From NCBI GenBank assembly GCA_025454815.1, contig JALONR010000007.1, forward strand, positions 70,010 to 134,009: DNA of 64,000 bases. Direction: 5' to 3'. Positions 19,153-59,297 of the stretch are shown here, in pieces. Position 1 is the first letter of the stretch; each line of letters starts with the position of its first letter. The notes under the pieces are model-generated. The model saw only the letters and a program-made list of their open reading frames with translations, was not told the origin of the DNA and made no database searches. The position numbers and the translations under genes were made by a program. This DNA comes from Bacteroidales bacterium (GTDB taxonomy: Bacteria; Bacteroidota; Bacteroidia; Bacteroidales; VadinHA17).

Positions 19153-19263
19153 CTGACTGCCCACTGCCGACTGGTACTGCCGACTGCCGACTGGTACTGC
19201 CTACTGCCGACTGGTACTGCCTACTGCCGACTGGTACTGCCTACTGCCGACTGGTACTGCCTA
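19153..19263 (-). repeat. 20-nt tandem repeat (about 5.5 units) whose first unit starts with the nadD stop codon
   Basis: The minus-sense unit is TAGGCAGTACCAGTCGGCAG. Four consecutive units start with TAG (plus-strand CTA at 19261, 19241, 19221, 19201). Then come a TCG variant (19183) and a partial TGG variant (19163). The plus-strand units at 19201-19260 are three perfect copies. Confidence 0.95.
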
Positions 19264-19854
19264 CTCATAAAAATGCATCTCCCTGATATACTTCCAGACG
19301 GAAGCAGGGACAAACCACGAGACATCCTTTCCTTCTCGGATGGCGCTGCGGATGAAGGTGCCGGAAATCTCCATTACCGGGGCGTCAATCTCCTGTATTG
19401 TGGCCATGGCAAGTATCTCCTGCAGCCGCTTGCTGCCCTTCCTTCCGGGGTAAAGCCTGGGATAAACCACAATCGGATACTGTTTCACCAGCATCTCTGC
19501 ATTCTTCCACTTGTGGAGAGTGGTGAGATTATCCTCACCCATTATCAGTGTGAACCGGCGTGACGGGTACTTTTCTGTCAGATGAGCCAGGGTGTCAATT
19601 GTGTAGGATGGCCTGGGAAGGGTGAACTCTATGTCCGAGGCCCTGAACCTCGGATCATCACCTATTGCCAGCTGGGTCATGTAAAACCGGTCGCGCTCAC
19701 TCAGCAATGTCTCCTTTACCTTCAGAGGATTATGCGGACTGACAACAAACCATACCTCCTTCAGCGGTGAGTATTCGGTGATGTAGTTGGCTATGGCCAT
19801 GTGGCCAATATGCACCGGGTTGAATGATCCGAAGAATAGTCCTGTCTCAGTCAT
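19261..19854 (-). CDS. nadD: Nicotinate-nucleotide adenylyltransferase
   Basis: 197 aa with 'GLFFGSFNPVHIGH' and 'ISGTFIRSAI'. It overlaps gmk by 4 nt. Confidence 0.9.
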   Translation of the reverse strand: MTETGLFFGSFNPVHIGHMAIANYITEYSPLKEVWFVVSPHNPLKVKETLLSERDRFYMTQLAIGDDPRFRASDIEFTLPRPSYTIDTLAHLTEKYPSRRFTLIMGEDNLTTLHKWKNAEMLVKQYPIVVYPRLYPGRKGSKRLQEILAMATIQEIDAPVMEISGTFIRSAIREGKDVSWFVPASVWKYIREMHFYE

Positions 19855-20436: not shown

Positions 20437-21312
20437 TTAAAGGATATTGAGGGTCAGTTCCTTGATCTTCTCCAGTTCATCCTTCATCATTACCACCAGC
20501 TTCTGCATGGAGGCATCGTTGGCTTTGGAGCCGATGGTATTGATCTCGCGTCCCATCTCCTGCGATATGAAGTTGAGCATCTTGCCATGGGTCCCTTCAG
20601 CTTTCATCGTCTCCAGGAAGTAGTCACAGTGTTTCCGCAGGCGAACCTTTTCCTCATTTATATCGAGTTTTTCCAGGTAGAAAATCAGCTCCTGTTCGAA
20701 CCGGTTTTTATCAACTTTTTCCGATCCCACTGCCTCCTTCAGCGTGGCATTCAGTTTCTCCCGCATCCTTGTGATACGATCTCCTTCCACTGCTCCGAGG
20801 TTGTCAAGATACCCGATTATGGAGGCGACCGATTTCGAGAGATCCTTTTCCATCGCCTTTCCCTCCTCCAGCCTGTAGAGGTCAGTCATCGCCAGTGCCT
20901 CATCCGTGAGTCCGGAGATCCTGTTCCACTCTTCGTCAGAGAGCTCCGCCTTCTCGGTACGGAGGGTCTCGGGCAGGCGCATCACTATTCCCAGCAGCCC
21001 GGCATCGTCATTGATTCCAAGTTCACCACTGATTTCCTTCAGCTGGCTGAAGTAACTCTTTACATTGTATTTGTTGATCACCGGTACCTGCTCGCTGTCC
21101 ATGGTGTCAAAGTTTATCGACAGGTCGATTTTCCCTCTCTCGAGCTTCCTCATCACTATGTTCCGGATATCAAGTTCCTTCTCCTTGCAGATCCATGGAA
21201 GCCTGGTGTTGATATCTGCCTGCTTGCTGTTGAGTGATTTTATCTCAACGGTGATCTTTCTCTGTGGCGTCTCCAGCATGGCTTTGCCATAGCCGGTCAT
21301 CGATCTTATCAT
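20437..21312 (-). CDS. yicC: YicC-family stress-induced protein
   Basis: The track ORF extends to 21405. The ATG at 21312 gives the canonical YicC N-terminus 'MIRSMTGYGKA'. The C-terminal segment 'EMGREINTIGSKAND' is also present. Confidence 0.85.
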   Translation of the reverse strand: MIRSMTGYGKAMLETPQRKITVEIKSLNSKQADINTRLPWICKEKELDIRNIVMRKLERGKIDLSINFDTMDSEQVPVINKYNVKSYFSQLKEISGELGINDDAGLLGIVMRLPETLRTEKAELSDEEWNRISGLTDEALAMTDLYRLEEGKAMEKDLSKSVASIIGYLDNLGAVEGDRITRMREKLNATLKEAVGSEKVDKNRFEQELIFYLEKLDINEEKVRLRKHCDYFLETMKAEGTHGKMLNFISQEMGREINTIGSKANDASMQKLVVMMKDELEKIKELTLNIL

Positions 21313-21375
21313 CGTTTTGCGGAAATTATAATGGTAAAGATATGTTTTTTCTCCAAGTCGCGAAGTAATGATCCG

Positions 21376-21560
21376 GCCGTGAAGCGCCTGATGGCGACAA
21401 TTCATGCCTCAGCCCGGCAGGTCAGGTTACACGGTGCAGTGTCTTATGAAGACAATTCATGCCTCAGCCCGGCAGGTCAGGCTCCACGGTGAAGTGCCTG
21501 ATGGCGACAATTCATACCTCAGCCCAGCAGGTCAAGCTCCACGGTGAAGTGTCTCATGAT
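21376..21560 (-). repeat. 55-nt tandem repeat (about 3.35 units) made of the last 13 codons, the stop codon and 13 nt of 3' flank of the tryptophanase-family gene
   Basis: Plus-strand units are 21376-21430, 21431-21485 and 21486-21540, plus 20 nt of a fourth (21541-21560, unique coding continuation). The period is exactly 55. Hand-counted mismatches are 8/55, 8/55 and 10/55 between unit pairs. Each full unit keeps the TGA. Confidence 0.95.
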
Positions 21561-22895
21561 TGGTGCTTCCCATTTTATGGCAAGACCCCTTCTGACGGTT
21601 TCCCTTCTCTCCCAGACATTCTGCACTGCCGCTGCAACATAATCCATGTGGTTGTCAGTGTAAACCCTTCTCGGTATTGCCAGCCTGACAAGCTCCAGCT
21701 CCGGGTACCTGTTCTCACGGGTAACAGGGTCACGGTCGGCCATCAGGGTGCCAATCTCGGTGCCCCGTATTCCTCCCTCGAGGTATATCTCAACCGCCAG
21801 TCGCTGTGCCGGGAATTCCGATGCCGGTATCTGCGGATAGAACTTGCCTGCATCAATAAAGATGGCATGGCCGCCGATGGGCATCTGTACCGGGATGCCT
21901 GACCTGTGAAGCTTTTCTCCCAGCCGTGCCACCTGGCCGATGCGGGCCCCCAGGTAATCAGATTCGGTACCCTCATACAACCCCTGTGCCAGCGCGTTCA
22001 TGTCGCGGCCTGACATACCGCCGTAGGTGATGTAACCCTCGAACATGATGTTGAAGGTTGATGCCTTCCGGAAGAGCTCGCGGTCCTTCATGCCGATGAA
22101 TCCGCCAATGTTGACTATGGCATCCTTCTTTGAGCTCATGGTCATGGCGTCAGCATATGAGAACATCTCACGGGTGATCTCCCTGATGGGTTTGTCAGCA
22201 TAACCCGCTTCACGCGTTTTGATGAAGTAGGCATTCTCTGCAAAACGGGCCGAGTCAATGACAAGCAGAACGCCGTACCTGTCAGCCAGACTGCGCACTC
22301 CGCGCAGGTTTGCCATGCTCACCGGCTGTCCACCTGCGGTGTTGTTGGTGACTGTCATCACGATGCAACCGAGCTTTTCACGCGGTGTCTCCTTCAGTAC
22401 CTGCTCCAGGTGTCCCAGGTCGGCATTACCCTTAAAGGGGTCATTATTGGTGATATCCCTTGCCCATGAAACGGTGCAGTCAACAGCTGTCGCTTTTCTG
22501 AATTCTATATGCCCCTTGGTAGTGTCAAAATGGGCGTTGCCCGGGATAACGTCACCCTCTTTTACCAGGACGGAAAAGAGTACATTTTCGGCGGCCCTTC
22601 CCTGGTGGGTGGGGAGAAAGTATTCGAACCCGGTTATGTCACGGATGGCCTCCTTCAGTTTGAAGTATGAGGATGCGCCGGCGTAGCTCTCGTCGCCGGT
22701 CATTATGGCCCCCCACTGCCTGTCGCTCATGGCGCCCGTGCCGGAGTCGGTCAGCAGGTCAATGAATACCTGTTCTGACTTCAGGTTGAACATGTTGTAT
22801 GAGGCGATTTTCATCCATTCTTCCCGCTCCTGGCGGGTGCTCTGCCGGATGGCCTCAATTGTCTTTATCTTGTAAGGTTCACAATATGGTAACAT
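21519..22895 (-). CDS. tnaA: Beta-eliminating lyase: tryptophanase / tyrosine phenol-lyase family
   Basis: The track ORF extends to 23090. The ATG at 22895 gives 'MLPYCEPYKIKTIE', the family's usual N-terminus, and a 458-aa product. PLP-lysine context 'MSSKKDAIVNIGGF' is present. Trp versus Tyr specificity cannot be decided by eye. Confidence 0.85.
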   Translation of the reverse strand: MLPYCEPYKIKTIEAIRQSTRQEREEWMKIASYNMFNLKSEQVFIDLLTDSGTGAMSDRQWGAIMTGDESYAGASSYFKLKEAIRDITGFEYFLPTHQGRAAENVLFSVLVKEGDVIPGNAHFDTTKGHIEFRKATAVDCTVSWARDITNNDPFKGNADLGHLEQVLKETPREKLGCIVMTVTNNTAGGQPVSMANLRGVRSLADRYGVLLVIDSARFAENAYFIKTREAGYADKPIREITREMFSYADAMTMSSKKDAIVNIGGFIGMKDRELFRKASTFNIMFEGYITYGGMSGRDMNALAQGLYEGTESDYLGARIGQVARLGEKLHRSGIPVQMPIGGHAIFIDAGKFYPQIPASEFPAQRLAVEIYLEGGIRGTEIGTLMADRDPVTRENRYPELELVRLAIPRRVYTDNHMDYVAAAVQNVWERRETVRRGLAIKWEAPIMRHFTVELDLLG

Positions 22896-22936: not shown

Positions 22937-23247
22937 TTGCCAGCACTACTGCCTTCCCGGTCCGACAGCTGGCGGAACGGGATTGATCCGCCTTCTGCGT
23001 CGTCGTTTCAAATTGCCTGTTGCCTTTCGGCATCTGCAATCTATAGATTAATAACAGAAAGTGAACCAATAATAGCGATGGAGCATGCAACTCCTGAACT
23101 CAGAATGCGTCCCTGTTCTTGATGTTACGGAAAATCAGCTTCCTGTTTATGACCCTGGATTGGCGGGAATTCATGGAAACGGCTATTTTTGCAAATATAA
23201 CTTTTTTACGTTTGGGGTACAATCCGGAATTCTTTAAACATTACGAA

Positions 23248-25161
23248 ATGAGATTGAGAACCTACAAGATTCTTTTACTTGTGCTTTGCCTTGCGGGCAC
23301 TACTCACCTGGCAGGTCAGGTTGTTGATGTACCTGTGGTGCCGCAGGTGGCAGCACCCCGCACGGATTCGCTGGCAGTGAACGGGTCATTGATCAGACAG
23401 ATAAAGGCAGCTCCCGTGCCCGGCATTAACGGACCTCAGGACATAAACCTTGGCACGGACGAGTCATTGAAATTCCTAGAACGTTTCTGTGCCTCACCGG
23501 CATTGTGGAAGCGCAGCAGTGACCCGCTTCGTGAAGCCCTGAAGAACCTAGTATGGCTTGCTTCCAGACCCCCGGCAGACACTGTGATCAGTTACCTTTC
23601 AGAGTATCCCTTTGAGCGGATCAGGGTTCCGGCTGAAAGCTATTATCTCTTTGATTCCGTGAGGATAATCCTCCCTCTGATAGTTCCTGATTCGACGGTC
23701 TCCGACAGTGCCGCCAGCGGTGCACGGCCGGATGAGATGTTCATCAGTGCCGGACGCAGTCTCAGGAAGGTTAAGCTTGCCGATGATGACCGGCCCATAA
23801 TTAAAAATGATACTCTCAAGCTGAACGACTCGGTCTATGTCCTGATGAAGGACTTCATCCCGGCAAGGCTGCCCCACAGGACAAATGACACAATCGTCCT
23901 TGTCATTACCGATACCCTGCCGGAAGTCTCACTGGCAGGTACCGATCTTCCGTTCAGGTATCTGAGGAATCCGTATGTCAGCGATTCTCTGCAGGCTGCA
24001 GTCAGTTCGCTGATAGGCTATCTTGTAAACCGTGACTCCTCGCTGGTTCGGATCACATCGGAAACCGGGAGGGGTGCTGATTTATGGCTTAACAGCCTGT
24101 CTGACAATCTTGTGAGATTCTGGTTGCCTGACGGTAAAGGTGATTCTGTAACAGTCTGGCTGGGAAACCCGATGCGCAATACTATTTCACTGAGGGCTGA
24201 AGAGGGAGTTCTCTTCAGGAAGCAGGTATGGCATGACAGATATGTTGACACACGCGTCAATGTCACCACTGCAAAGGAGGAAGAGCTCCGGAGAGTGGCC
24301 TTAAGCAAGGTTAAACCCGACTTATGGAAATTCAGGACTGACCTTTCATATCTTCTCTCACAGGGGGTTGTCTCCAACTGGGCTAAGGGGGGGGAGAATA
24401 ACGTTTCAACGGTGCTCGATGTGACATCAGCCCTGAATTACAATAACAAGATTACCAGGGTCAACTCTGCTACATCTGCAAGATTCGCTCTCGGGCTTCA
24501 GGCTTCGGGAAAATATGATGGAATCAGAAAGAACCTCGATATCCTTGAGATCAACTCCAAGATAAACCATAAGGCATTCGGCAAGTTCGATCTTTCGGGG
24601 ATCTTCCAGTTCAAGTCGCAATTCCTTCCGGGATATACCTATCCGAATGACACCACCTCGATAATGGTTTCAAAGTTCTTTAATCCGGCCACATTCATAC
24701 TGGGTTACGGTCTCGAGTACAAACCGGACAAAAACACCTCCATAAGCTTCTCCCCTCTGTCATACAAGGGGACGTTCGTTACTGACACCGCCAGCATCAA
24801 CCAGACCAAATATGGTATTGCAGCAGACAAACGATCAAAGAACGAGTTAGGGGCTTATCTTACCATCAGCAGCAAACTTGTTCTTTTTGAAAAGATCAAC
24901 ATGTCAAACAGGGTGCAGTTCTTCAGCAATTTCCTTTCGAAGCCTCAGAATGTTGATGTCGACTGGGAGATGATTGCAACGATGCCTCTGAACTGGTTCA
25001 CAGACCTCAGGGTTAATGTCCACCTGATATATGATGACAACACACTGCTTCCTGTCTATGAAAGGGGAGAGCCTGTCCTGGGCACCGACGGCAAGCAGAA
25101 GAAAGCTCCGATGGTTCAGTTCAAGGAGCTGCTTGGGGTAAGTTTTGTGTTTAAGTTTTAG
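23248..25161 (+). CDS. Outer-membrane protein, DUF3078-like (signal peptide plus C-terminal beta-barrel-like region)
   Basis: The ATG at 23248 gives the signal peptide 'MRLRTYKILLLVLCLAGTTHLAGQ'. The C-terminal half has alternating beta-strand-like segments and ends in 'LLGVSFVFKF', an aromatic C-terminus typical of OMPs. Confidence 0.6.
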   Translation: MRLRTYKILLLVLCLAGTTHLAGQVVDVPVVPQVAAPRTDSLAVNGSLIRQIKAAPVPGINGPQDINLGTDESLKFLERFCASPALWKRSSDPLREALKNLVWLASRPPADTVISYLSEYPFERIRVPAESYYLFDSVRIILPLIVPDSTVSDSAASGARPDEMFISAGRSLRKVKLADDDRPIIKNDTLKLNDSVYVLMKDFIPARLPHRTNDTIVLVITDTLPEVSLAGTDLPFRYLRNPYVSDSLQAAVSSLIGYLVNRDSSLVRITSETGRGADLWLNSLSDNLVRFWLPDGKGDSVTVWLGNPMRNTISLRAEEGVLFRKQVWHDRYVDTRVNVTTAKEEELRRVALSKVKPDLWKFRTDLSYLLSQGVVSNWAKGGENNVSTVLDVTSALNYNNKITRVNSATSARFALGLQASGKYDGIRKNLDILEINSKINHKAFGKFDLSGIFQFKSQFLPGYTYPNDTTSIMVSKFFNPATFILGYGLEYKPDKNTSISFSPLSYKGTFVTDTASINQTKYGIAADKRSKNELGAYLTISSKLVLFEKINMSNRVQFFSNFLSKPQNVDVDWEMIATMPLNWFTDLRVNVHLIYDDNTLLPVYERGEPVLGTDGKQKKAPMVQFKELLGVSFVFKF

Positions 25162-57590: not shown

Positions 57591-58499
57591 ATGAAAAGAA
57601 TATCATTTGCCATCGTAGCGGTACTTGTGGTTGCCTTCCAGGCCTGTCAGACCCGGGGAAACGAGTATCACCTGTATTACCTTGGAGGACAGTCAAATAT
57701 GGACGGTTACGGTCTCACGGCGGATCTGCCGGCCAGCCTTGCAGGCGATATGCAGGGTGTCATGATCTACCATGGCAACACCTCTGCAGACAATACACCT
57801 GTTGACGGTCGGGGCATCTGGAGCACCCTCCGTCCCGGGCACGGCGCGGGCTTCAAAAGTGACGGAACCACCAACCTGTACTCTGACAGGTTCGGGGTTG
57901 AACTCTCCTTCGCTGAAAAAATGAAGGAACTTTTCCCTGATGAAAAGATCGCAATAATAAAGTATTCGAGGGGAGGTACCTCAATTGACACTGCAGCTGC
58001 CGGTGGTGCAGGTGCATGGCTGCCAGGGTACACAGGGGGCAATGCCGTAAACCAGTATGATCATTTCCTGTCCACCGTTAAGGGAGCCCTGGCTGCAAAG
58101 GACATCGACGGCGACGGAAAGAAAGACCGGCTTTTACCGTCGGGGATTTTATGGATGCAGGGGGAGAGCGATGCCAACAATGACTATGCCACCTCGATTT
58201 ACAAGGAGAACCTTGCAATGCTGATTGACAGTATCCGGACTGTCTTTTCGGCACCCGATATGCCTGTGGCCATTGGCCGTATTTCAGATTCCCGCAATGA
58301 TGCTGACAGCCTTGTGTGGACATGGGGTGATGCAGTCAGGGAGGCACAGGCGAAGTATGTTGCCGAAGACGGTAAAGCTGTACTTGTGACTTCAACTGAC
58401 AACTACGGTTACAGTGATCCATGGCATTATGACAGCGAAGGCTATATTGACCTCGGAAGGAAATTCGCCGAGGCGATTGCAGCCATCAGGCAGCGGTGA
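57591..58499 (+). CDS. Sialate O-acetylesterase-like (DUF303/SGNH-type) esterase, secreted
   Basis: 302 aa with a signal peptide, a catalytic-Ser block 'YYLGGQSNMDGYG' and 'ILWMQGESD'. Confidence 0.75.
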   Translation: MKRISFAIVAVLVVAFQACQTRGNEYHLYYLGGQSNMDGYGLTADLPASLAGDMQGVMIYHGNTSADNTPVDGRGIWSTLRPGHGAGFKSDGTTNLYSDRFGVELSFAEKMKELFPDEKIAIIKYSRGGTSIDTAAAGGAGAWLPGYTGGNAVNQYDHFLSTVKGALAAKDIDGDGKKDRLLPSGILWMQGESDANNDYATSIYKENLAMLIDSIRTVFSAPDMPVAIGRISDSRNDADSLVWTWGDAVREAQAKYVAEDGKAVLVTSTDNYGYSDPWHYDSEGYIDLGRKFAEAIAAIRQR

Positions 58500-58546: not shown

Positions 58547-58671
58547 GAATCCGGAAGAGGCAATGGCCAGCCTTGGATGCCGCTGCATGATCCGGCAGAC
58601 TCAATGGCCAGCCTTGGATGCCGCTGCATGATCCGGCAGAATCAATTGCCAGCCTTGGAGGCTGCTAATCC
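58547..58671 (-). repeat. 41-nt tandem repeat (about 3.3 units) whose gene-proximal partial unit covers the plsY stop codon
   Basis: Plus-strand units 58561-58601 and 58602-58642 differ at 2 positions by hand count. A partial divergent unit 58643-58671 (CAATTGCCAGCCTTGGAGGCTGCTAATCC) includes the CTA stop (58665-58667). A unit-end-like fragment lies at 58547-58560. Confidence 0.9.
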
Positions 58672-59297
58672 TTTTTCTTCCTGATAAATTTTTTCTCCTC
58701 GCCCCTGAGCAGCCGCCTGATGTTTTTGGAGTGGGTGATAATAACTGCCACTGCCACCACCACAGAAAAGACCACCAGCAGCCTGGAAGGGGTTCGGAAA
58801 AGTGTCAGCAGCAGAACGGGAAACATTGTCACTGCAATCATTGATCCCAGCGATACATAACCGCTTAACAGGAGCACCAGGAGAAATATTCCGGCACATG
58901 TCAGTGTAAGCAGCGGATGAAGCGCCAGCAGGACTCCGAAAGTGGTTGCCACCCCTTTTCCGCCACGGAATCCGGCAAACAACGGAAACACATGTCCGAT
59001 AATTGCTGCAAGTCCGCATACGATCTGAAGCACCATCATCTGCTCGCTGCCTTCAGGGGCAGCAACGAGGAACCGCGGCAGCATGGCGGCCAGCCAACCC
59101 TTGAAAAGGTCAAATATCAGAACAGGAATTCCGGTTTTCCAGCCCAGAACCCTCACAGTGTTTGTGGCACCTGCGTTACCGCTGCCATGTTCCCTGACAT
59201 CAATGCCGTGAAATATCTTACCTGCCCAGACGGCACTGGGGATTGAGCCTGCCAGGTAAGCCAGCACGACTGCAACAACTGATAATGATATGACCAT
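58665..59297 (-). CDS. plsY: Glycerol-3-phosphate acyltransferase PlsY
   Basis: 210 aa and polytopic, with 'GSGNAGATN' and 'FRGGKGVAT'. Confidence 0.92.
   Translation of the reverse strand: MVISLSVVAVVLAYLAGSIPSAVWAGKIFHGIDVREHGSGNAGATNTVRVLGWKTGIPVLIFDLFKGWLAAMLPRFLVAAPEGSEQMMVLQIVCGLAAIIGHVFPLFAGFRGGKGVATTFGVLLALHPLLTLTCAGIFLLVLLLSGYVSLGSMIAVTMFPVLLLTLFRTPSRLLVVFSVVVAVAVIITHSKNIRRLLRGEEKKFIRKKKD

Follow-up and report, generated by a model that had tools for sequence, protein, structure and literature searches.

A tandem triplication of the tryptophanase gene end in a Bacteroidales bacterium, probably an old minisatellite of ordinary origin

Why is the end of a tryptophanase gene written out three times in front of its downstream neighbour? 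The question arises in a stretch of 64,000 nucleotides (nt), here called the window, from contig JALONR010000007.1 of the Bacteroidales bacterium assembly GCA_025454815.1, in which the last 13 codons and the stop codon of tnaA recur, together with their 3' flank, as a tandem array between tnaA and yicC. We argue that this array is probably a locus-specific minisatellite that arose by replication slippage or unequal recombination, and that it is old, dynamic and likely neutral, no dedicated function being indicated. As a locus it is a new case of a known kind, with an ordinary mechanism. As a natural example of a short imperfect direct repeat seeding a minisatellite that engulfs a gene end, with expansion, decay and collapse all visible among related genomes, it is nevertheless more interesting than a private slip would be. 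In the direction in which tnaA is read, the units are:

21505 to 21559, minus strand: unit 1, the coding copy, TCATGAGACACTTCACCGTGGAGCTTGACCTGCTGGGCTGA plus the 14-nt flank GGTATGAATTGTCG; it holds the last 13 tnaA codons, with the TGA at 21521-21519
21450 to 21504, minus strand: unit 2, non-coding; spacer-motif type at the 5' end (CCATCAGGC) and gene type from there on
21395 to 21449, minus strand: unit 3, non-coding, with an internal TAA; equal to unit 2 in the 31 nt at the 3' side, of mutated gene type in the 5' part
21377 to 21394, minus strand: a fourth, partial unit, the 'a3' motif CCATCAGGCGCTTCACGG, 55 nt past the equivalent point of unit 3

The array thus extends over three 55-nt units and the 18-nt start of a fourth (window 21377-21559, minus strand), all head-to-tail and abutting, without indels and without spacers or inserted DNA between them. 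The initial annotation, made from the letters of the window, had reported a triplication of the tnaA end with a period of exactly 55 nt, and this was recovered by Tandem Repeats Finder (21396-21559; period 55, 3.0 copies, 88% matches, 0% indels, score 251), by a second repeat search of the window (three copies of 71 nt, each 55 nt from the next) and by a scan with a 35-nt core, which gave three matches at up to 3 mismatches, versus none in 100 shuffles, and no further match in the 64 kb. A blastn-short search at E <= 10 also turned up no copy of the unit elsewhere in the window, and of about 200 fetched loci only the contigs of this strain and one relative, L186, contain it more than once. The coding part of unit 1 agrees with the ending of its orthologues, ...IMRHFTVELDLLG and stop, and the translations originally quoted for the downstream copies (IRHFTVEPDLPG-stop, IRHCTV-stop-PDLPG-stop and IRRFTA) are right. 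Some details of that description had to be amended: the unit does contain the last 13 codons and the stop, but the flank in unit 1 measures 14 nt and not 13, and the 8-10 differences per 55 positions counted by hand come to exactly 7/55 for every pair of full units (about 13% divergence).

Unit 2 differs from unit 1 at positions 1, 5, 8, 25, 34, 44 and 55. The three substitutions that the downstream copies were said to have in common are real: units 2 and 3 carry C at positions 25, 34 and 44, where unit 1 carries T. By outgroup comparison, the C of units 2 and 3 is the derived state at positions 25 and 34, and at position 44 it is probably the T of the gene copy that is derived. The fourth unit is 16/18 identical to unit 2, and similarity is gone beyond its 18 nt. 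Because 55 equals 18 x 3 + 1, the unit translations fall in successive frames, so that only unit 1 would be translated into protein and the further units would be non-coding pseudo-ends in other frames. That the units have diverged and have kept their exact phase holds as first described, but the phase is unremarkable given about ten variable sites in three units.

Tandem repeats trouble short-read assemblers, and the Logan assembly of SRR12684589 does split at the array, into two contigs (L001 and L003). One of these stops at ...GGCATGAATTGT inside unit 2, and the other starts with CTGACCTGCC...GTCGCCATCAGGCG, the end of unit 3. The break falls on the branch point between units 2 and 3, where a shared 30-mer is followed by T in unit 2 and by G in unit 3, and a de Bruijn assembler would break at this very point if both units exist. 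A 54-kb metagenome contig of the Joint Genome Institute (L002; JGI 3300037461) contains the identical three-unit array, with 2 differences from the window in 8582 nt. Two assemblies thus agree base for base over the array, contrary to the possibility, raised initially, that reads would reveal a single unit; moreover, a divergence of 13% between units is not the product of collapse or expansion artefacts, and an alignable multi-copy structure occurs in an unrelated SPAdes assembly (L186). The exact array was found in one population, comprising the window and L001-L003 at identities of at least 99.98%, and it acts as a breakpoint for short-read assemblies.

Dedicated machinery fares no better than artefact. 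Like a diversity-generating retroelement (DGR), the locus has a near-copy of a gene 3' end close by, and like the attL/attR duplication left by an integrative element, it has a direct repeat of a gene 3' end downstream of the intact gene. However, no reverse transcriptase, integrase, transposase, recombinase or cas gene was found among open reading frames (ORFs) of at least 220 amino acids (aa) within about 11 kb on each side. A DGR would further be expected to produce adenine-specific mismatches, whereas adenine is the changed base in 1/7 differences from unit 1 to unit 2 and in 0/7 from unit 1 to unit 3, and the target here is a conserved metabolic enzyme. Unlike attachment (att) sites, which are two distant copies around an intervening element, the three copies abut with no DNA inserted between them. 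We therefore regard it as scarcely credible that the array is an assembly artefact or the product of a DGR, of att-site duplication or of clustered regularly interspaced short palindromic repeats (CRISPR).

If the array is real, is it a recent accident of this one strain? The answer depends on relatives at the right distance. Scans of species-representative genomes and of metagenomes yielded best protein identities of 83% (L004) and 85% (L084), and in both of these loci tnaA is followed directly by yicC across a repeat-free spacer of 39-41 nt; lineages at 89-96% protein identity came only via protein search and cluster look-ups. The tnaA-yicC spacer measures 206 nt in the window versus 39-42 nt in the repeat-free L004, L084, L166, L174 and L199, in line with the early remark that the array fills most of it. 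Compared with the window, each other lineage of the clade has a tnaA of about 86% identity, and identity at the 4-fold degenerate sites of the gene is only 0.49-0.59, figures by which the window is separated from these lineages by deep splits at the species or genus level.

The spacers of these relatives fall into classes. In class (a), comprising L166, L174 and L199/L200, the spacer is 41-42 nt long, with 11-12 nt after the tnaA stop and then TATCTTTG, TATATTTG or TATCTTTA ahead of yicC. In class (b), comprising L164, L176, L191 and L201, it is 127-128 nt long and contains CA(T/A)CAGGC(A/G)CTTC...CCTGACCTG...GCATGGCTG. Class (b) spacers align to window unit 2 with deletions, the score being reached by 0-1/3000 shuffles for L164, L176 and L191 (P <= 0.0003 for each of the three relic copies), and on the strength of this alignment we identify the class (b) element as a decayed second copy of the tnaA end. 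Class (c) is the lineage with a TnaA of 458 aa and comprises L175 and L186, whose tnaA genes are 97.1% identical and whose spacers differ by 133 nt in length. The L186 spacer of 229 nt contains unit 1, a clear unit 2 (40-nt alignment to its own gene end, reached by 0/2000 shuffles), a 21-nt insertion, a third unit and then a terminal motif, and MAFFT aligned it to the window unit for unit. Its third unit is recognised mainly by the 3' end GGCATGAAATGTC (P ~0.01); the 5' end, TCAAGAGGCACTTC, matches window unit 3 by eye only (about 10/14). Because the extra units of L186 have diverged far beyond 3%, they predate the split between L175 and L186.

The spacer of L175, at 96 nt, holds only unit 1 and the terminal motif. 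Its junction CCATCAGGC|TCTTCACGG consists of the beginning of unit 2 and the rest of the terminal motif, each as it reads in L186 (CTATGAGGC|TCTTCACGG), and this chimeric junction identifies L175 as a collapse by recombination between two unit starts that left the coding copy intact. The terminal motif aligns as an orthologue of the class (b) relic; the fourth unit of the window accordingly has orthologues in L175 and L186 and a relic counterpart in L164, L176, L191 and L201.

A recent, strain-private slip without history would account for the occurrence of the exact array in one population only, and for the near-identity of its three 14-nt flanks, which points to recent copying. It would leave unexplained the array of L186, which is alignable unit for unit, has the flank type GGCATGAAATGTC and shows an equal alternation of unit starts, as well as the derived changes common to unit 2 of the window and unit 2 of L186 and the relic copies in four further lineages. 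We consider such a slip decidedly unlikely. The initial annotation had held that the array is old, and alignable or relic copies in other species-level lineages confirm this; spacers with no trace of duplication, which it had named as the mark of a private event, occur only in more distant relatives and not in the close clade.

How could such an array have arisen? Within the spacer of the clade with about 95%-identical TnaA lies a short motif, CCATCAGGCNCTTCACGG, similar to TCATGAGGCACTTCAC(C/G)G in the gene itself. The two counterparts in L175, TCATGAGGCACTTCACGG in the gene and CCATCAGGCTCTTCACGG in the spacer, have their starts separated by exactly 55 nt (local alignment, P = 0.0005) and form an imperfect 18-nt direct repeat one period apart; L175 probably being a collapsed array itself, the spacing illustrates the geometry and does not prove an ancestral state. 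Slippage between short direct repeats is RecA-independent, and a repeat of this sort is a classical substrate for slipped misalignment and for unequal crossing-over. Misalignment of the gene motif with the spacer motif could have duplicated the intervening 55 nt, that is, 13 codons, the stop and the 14-nt flank, and the spacer motif, which corresponds to the terminal motif, would probably be the remnant of an older gene-end copy made in the ancestor of the 95% clade. Misalignment of such a substrate predicts a hybrid repeat at the new junction, and window unit 2 fits as that hybrid: positions 1-9 (CCATCAGGC) are of the spacer type and the remainder is of the gene type. Copy number would then have drifted, leaving 3.3 units here, a decayed and indel-bearing array in L186, a single unit in L175 and a lone relic in four other lineages. 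The window units appear to have been partly homogenised, most likely by conversion or re-duplication, as the three flanks are nearly identical to one another and the longest difference-free run between units 2 and 3 reaches 31 nt (P ~0.014 by simulation), both of which indicate that homogenisation was recent. The net effect would be to stretch the spacer ahead of the yicC core promoter, itself intact, from some 40 nt to 206 nt.

That this promoter is intact follows from the sequences next to the array:

21313 to 21376, minus strand: the promoter-proximal block from the array to the yicC ATG, 52-54/60 identical to L186 and holding the -7 box
21342 to 21335, minus strand: the yicC -7-type box TATCTTTA, the sole TAnnTTT[AG] match in 21290-21620

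The promoter consensus of Bacteroidetes consists of TTTG near -33 and TAnnTTTG at -7 (PMC7366714). The TATCTTTA box is followed by the yicC ATG after 22 nt and preceded, at a distance of 35 nt, by the fourth partial unit; the TATnTTT of the box is invariant in 9/9 aligned lineages, with or without repeats. No TAnnTTTG-like box lies inside the array in the scan of 21290-21620. The suggestion that the array might carry or displace the promoter of yicC-gmk-nadD is therefore not borne out; the box is conserved and outside the array, which only moves tnaA farther off. A scan for sigma-70 promoters and terminators performed at chance level, sigma-70 being the wrong promoter type for this phylum, and found no terminator-like site on the minus (gene) strand.

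Folding of the repeat RNA, which had been proposed as a check, likewise gave no structure beyond that of shuffled sequences: RNAfold found no excess stability in the 301-nt region (z = -0.10) or in the three units (-0.03, -0.53 and +0.31). Rfam returned no family at threshold and two sub-threshold matches to a 25-nt plant-virus pseudoknot model. A 6-bp hairpin in unit 2, UCAGGC...GCCUGA, is created by the derived changes G5C and T25C and is also visible in the relics; we set it aside as a weak observation, RNAfold not forming it in the window units and unit 3 lacking it. Class (b) spacers have signals of their own. A T-run lies about 22-29 nt past the tnaA stop (e.g., in L176 2881-3007), and a strong hairpin, GCUGCGAA-NCAC-UUCGCRGC (z -2.3 to -4.4), is present there and not in the window; its 3' arm can alternatively pair with the following CUGCGAG. 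From their sequence, hairpin and T-run are probably a functional terminator or leader element.

Does the array nonetheless contain something that selection has kept? Several observations weigh against a purely neutral history. Across lineages, conservation of the non-coding copies exceeds that of neutral sites: unit 2 of the window and unit 2 of L186 differ at 4/41 positions while the 4-fold sites of tnaA are 0.56 identical, and neutral DNA of such age would be expected to differ at about half of its positions, as do the flanks of unit 1 (8/14 identical). L186 unit 2 is nearer to window unit 2 than to its own unit 1 (8/41) or to any other coding copy. The two unit 2 copies have four derived states in common, of which those at positions 1 and 5 come from the hybrid origin, and the other two, T25C and T34C, are absent in coding copies; we roughly estimate the chance of their parallel origin at 0.001-0.005. 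This closeness, the shared derived states and the same alternation of unit starts lead us to regard the window and L186 arrays as old orthologues. T25C and T34C ought not to have survived simple conversion by the coding copy. Among class (b) spacers, identity is 84-86% and the only gap is one indel of 1 nt, although the 4-fold sites of these lineages are only 0.47-0.60 identical, which indicates that some spacer DNA is under purifying selection. Finally, unit starts alternate between gene, spacer, gene and spacer type in both the window and L186, and the simplest two-step history, in which unit 1 gave unit 2 and unit 2 gave unit 3, fails to yield the gene-type start of unit 3; with that model gone, we claim no exact order of duplication events. 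Concerted evolution anchored on the selected coding copy, through conversion or through cycles of collapse and re-expansion, would explain most of these observations, but it hardly accounts for the retention of T25C and T34C.

These difficulties for the neutral minisatellite are what would be expected if the unit or the ancestral relic were a selected cis-element of the tnaA-yicC spacer that the array has multiplied, for instance a protein- or RNase-binding site in the tnaA 3' untranslated region or the yicC leader, or an upstream promoter element. Such an element would fit with the 4/41 differences between the unit 2 copies, with the similarity among the 127-128-nt spacers that carry the relic, with an identity of 87-90% between window and L186 over the stretch running from the fourth motif as far as yicC, and with the 31-nt identical run in units 2 and 3. 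On the other side, the array is dispensable: L175 has lost it, L187, L190, L199 and all more distant relatives are without it, and L186 has let unit 3 decay and gained a 21-nt insertion. No window unit has a significant fold, the strong hairpin of the 127-nt spacer type is not found in the window, no known RNA family matches, and the distance from the motif to the -7 box varies, from 52 nt here to 70 nt in the 127-nt type. We regard a selected cis-element as unlikely, if worth keeping in view. Its more specific form, in which the last 40 nt or so of tnaA are kept by purifying selection as a spacer cis-element throughout the clade and the window array is a triplication of that element, strikes us as quite unlikely; such a site could conceivably be recognised by the YicC endoribonuclease encoded just downstream. 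If true, a selected copy would account for as few as 4/41 differences in unit 2 between lineages with saturated synonymous sites, and a conservation that marks a regulatory site common to tnaA and yicC-gmk-nadD would be of greater importance than the array itself.

A minisatellite that contains the end of a gene can also damage it. Read from the sequence, an in-register deletion between units 1 and 2 with a crossover before position 25-34 would give ...FTVEPDLPG and stop, and one joining unit 1 with unit 3 would give ...CTV and stop. In this way TnaA would gain prolines or a premature stop from in-register collapses with a crossover upstream of position 34, so that changes in copy number could harm the C-terminus of the enzyme. 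The 120 closest homologues all end in (T/P)(V/I/L)EL(D/E/G)(L/S)(L/P/I)x, one of them in ELELPG, and a natural EPDLPG tail occurs in 0 of these 120. Such collapses are probably selected against, harmless crossovers being confined to the last 20 nt or so of the unit or to exchanges between downstream units, as in L175; by purging the collapses that damage TnaA, selection should aid the persistence of the array. It had also been suggested that recombination between units could swap the tail LDLLG for PDLPG. The swap is mechanically possible, but no such tail exists among the 120 homologues and the coding copy of L175 is untouched. That the array serves as a device to vary the TnaA C-terminus, by this swap or by truncation, would fit with in-register recombination with unit 2 keeping the frame; against it stand the conserved ending of all 120 homologues, the native tail retained in L175, the sole natural collapse seen, and the lack of a recombinase gene within 11 kb on each side, and we find it barely conceivable. 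Persistence of the array through purged collapses provides no evidence for programmed tail variation.

The probable minisatellite has its closest parallels among bacterial variable-number tandem repeats (VNTRs) made by slippage or unequal recombination. Like these, it consists of constant-period, head-to-tail copies (period 55, 3.0 copies and an 18-nt start), imperfect direct repeats one period apart are present in L175, the first extra unit is a hybrid, and copy number varies between close relatives (about three decayed units in L186, one in L175) with a chimeric deletion junction. Unlike typical hypervariable VNTRs, however, its unit includes the last 13 codons and the stop of a gene, and copies or relics have persisted longer, across several species-level lineages. 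Mycobacterial interspersed repetitive units (MIRU-VNTRs), reportedly the subject of a study in mycobacteria by Supply and co-workers in 1997, are tandem units of 40-100 bp that lie between co-oriented genes, overlap the upstream stop codon and vary in copy number between strains. Our array resembles them in unit size, in its position between co-oriented genes and in the overlap with the stop codon. MIRUs are dispersed over dozens of loci with a consensus of their own, whereas the window unit derives from the flanking gene and occupies one locus, with no MIRU-like dispersal to any other locus in the 64 kb. Nor did the window show an excess of arrays, with three of period at least 15 versus about four per 64 kb in the fetched loci of relatives.

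The genes on either side are those named in the initial annotation (tnaA and yicC, followed by gmk and nadD):

21519 to 22895, minus strand: tnaA, an ORF for a tryptophanase of 458 aa (PF01212, Beta_elim_lyase), the exact protein being NCBI MCU0458021.1, 'tryptophanase'
20437 to 21312, minus strand: yicC, 291 aa, starting MIRSMTGYG, the first gene of yicC-gmk-nadD

MCU0458021.1 comes from an uncultured Bacteroidales metagenome-assembled genome, and this TnaA is 95% identical to the representative of a protein cluster with 82 members. The 291-aa call for yicC, with YicC-like_N/C domains, recurs in L002 and L003. Pfam annotation of the ORFs of at least 220 aa, over about 11 kb to each side, showed housekeeping genes only; neighbours include an acetyl-CoA synthetase (ADP-forming type), an aminotransferase, subunits of a 2-oxoacid:ferredoxin oxidoreductase, an AAA_14 ATPase, DUF3078, UbiA, PheT and SurE.

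The array gives rise to a spurious long yicC ORF that begins at an ATG at 21405, in the flank of unit 3. An N-terminal extension of YicC from this start is in frame in the window and L186 only; 12/14 lineages have no in-frame upstream start, and the -7 box would lie inside the putative extension, so we ruled it out. A TnaA-YicC readthrough fusion was also rejected: L175, L166 and L174 have yicC in frame with tnaA, but this is not conserved, L199 and the window being out of frame and L004 having an in-frame stop. In L002 (1285-3120), a contig 99.98% identical to the window, the JGI gene table has no tnaA call though the ORF is intact, a gap in annotation for which the repeat or the unusual start region may be responsible.

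The other side of tnaA may hold more of interest than the array. The 150 nt upstream of the gene (about 23100-23250) are 95-98% identical between lineages in which 4-fold sites are 0.56 identical, and the following features lie in or near this region:

23199 to 23192, minus strand: a -7-type box, TATATTTG, preceding the upstream ORF
23174 to 23100, minus strand: a conserved upstream ORF of 24 codons, MNSRQSRVINRKLIFRNIKNRDAF and stop, about 200 nt ahead of tnaA
22898 to 22937: a heptad repeat, GATTTGC x 5.7 (GCAAATC in gene sense), adjoining the tnaA start; C-rich and G-poor on the mRNA strand

The upstream ORF is also present in L186, L164, L166, L199, L084, L004, L026, L039, L055, L062, L079, L080, L109 and L138. 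Its C-terminal motif, N(I/V/L)K(N/D)RD(A/S)(F/Y), recurs in small upstream ORFs of Bacteroidales, Marinilabiliales-like and Prolixibacter loci, and codon changes within the motif are mostly synonymous in close relatives. Directly past its stop lies a hairpin, GGAG-UUGCAUG-CUCC (23075-23097, minus strand). In L186 and L175 the hairpin reads GGGG...CCCC, one stem pair having changed, by eye, from A-U to G-C on both sides. Hairpin and upstream ORF could, to judge from their sequence, form an attenuator. The hairpin is followed by a variable spacer of about 200 nt that ends in the GCAAATC heptads beside the tnaA ATG, where relatives have longer and more variable CGCAAAT-type runs. In E. coli, the tnaC leader has 24 codons and precedes a spacer with Rho-dependent termination signals (PMC8429421). 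The layout of a 24-codon leader, a spacer and tnaA is alike in both, and the peptide sequences are unrelated; by this analogy the ORF is a candidate tryptophanase leader peptide, and in the literature searched we found no description of such a leader in Bacteroidetes.

Two further tandem repeats in the window also adjoin stop codons:

19156 to 19265: a 20-nt tandem repeat, 5.5 copies, 97% matches; it begins at the nadD stop, between the convergent nadD and AAA_14 genes
58549 to 58666: a 41-nt tandem repeat, 2.9 copies, 90% matches; it ends at the stop of a 210-aa ORF

The unit of the 20-nt repeat ends in AGTAG, like the last codon and stop of nadD, and a similar motif, CAGTACCAGTC...GCAGT, is repeated upstream of tnaA in L164 (1317-1380). 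The 41-nt repeat fills the gap between an unannotated ORF of 302 aa (57591-58499, plus strand) and the convergent ORF of 210 aa (58665-59297, minus strand).

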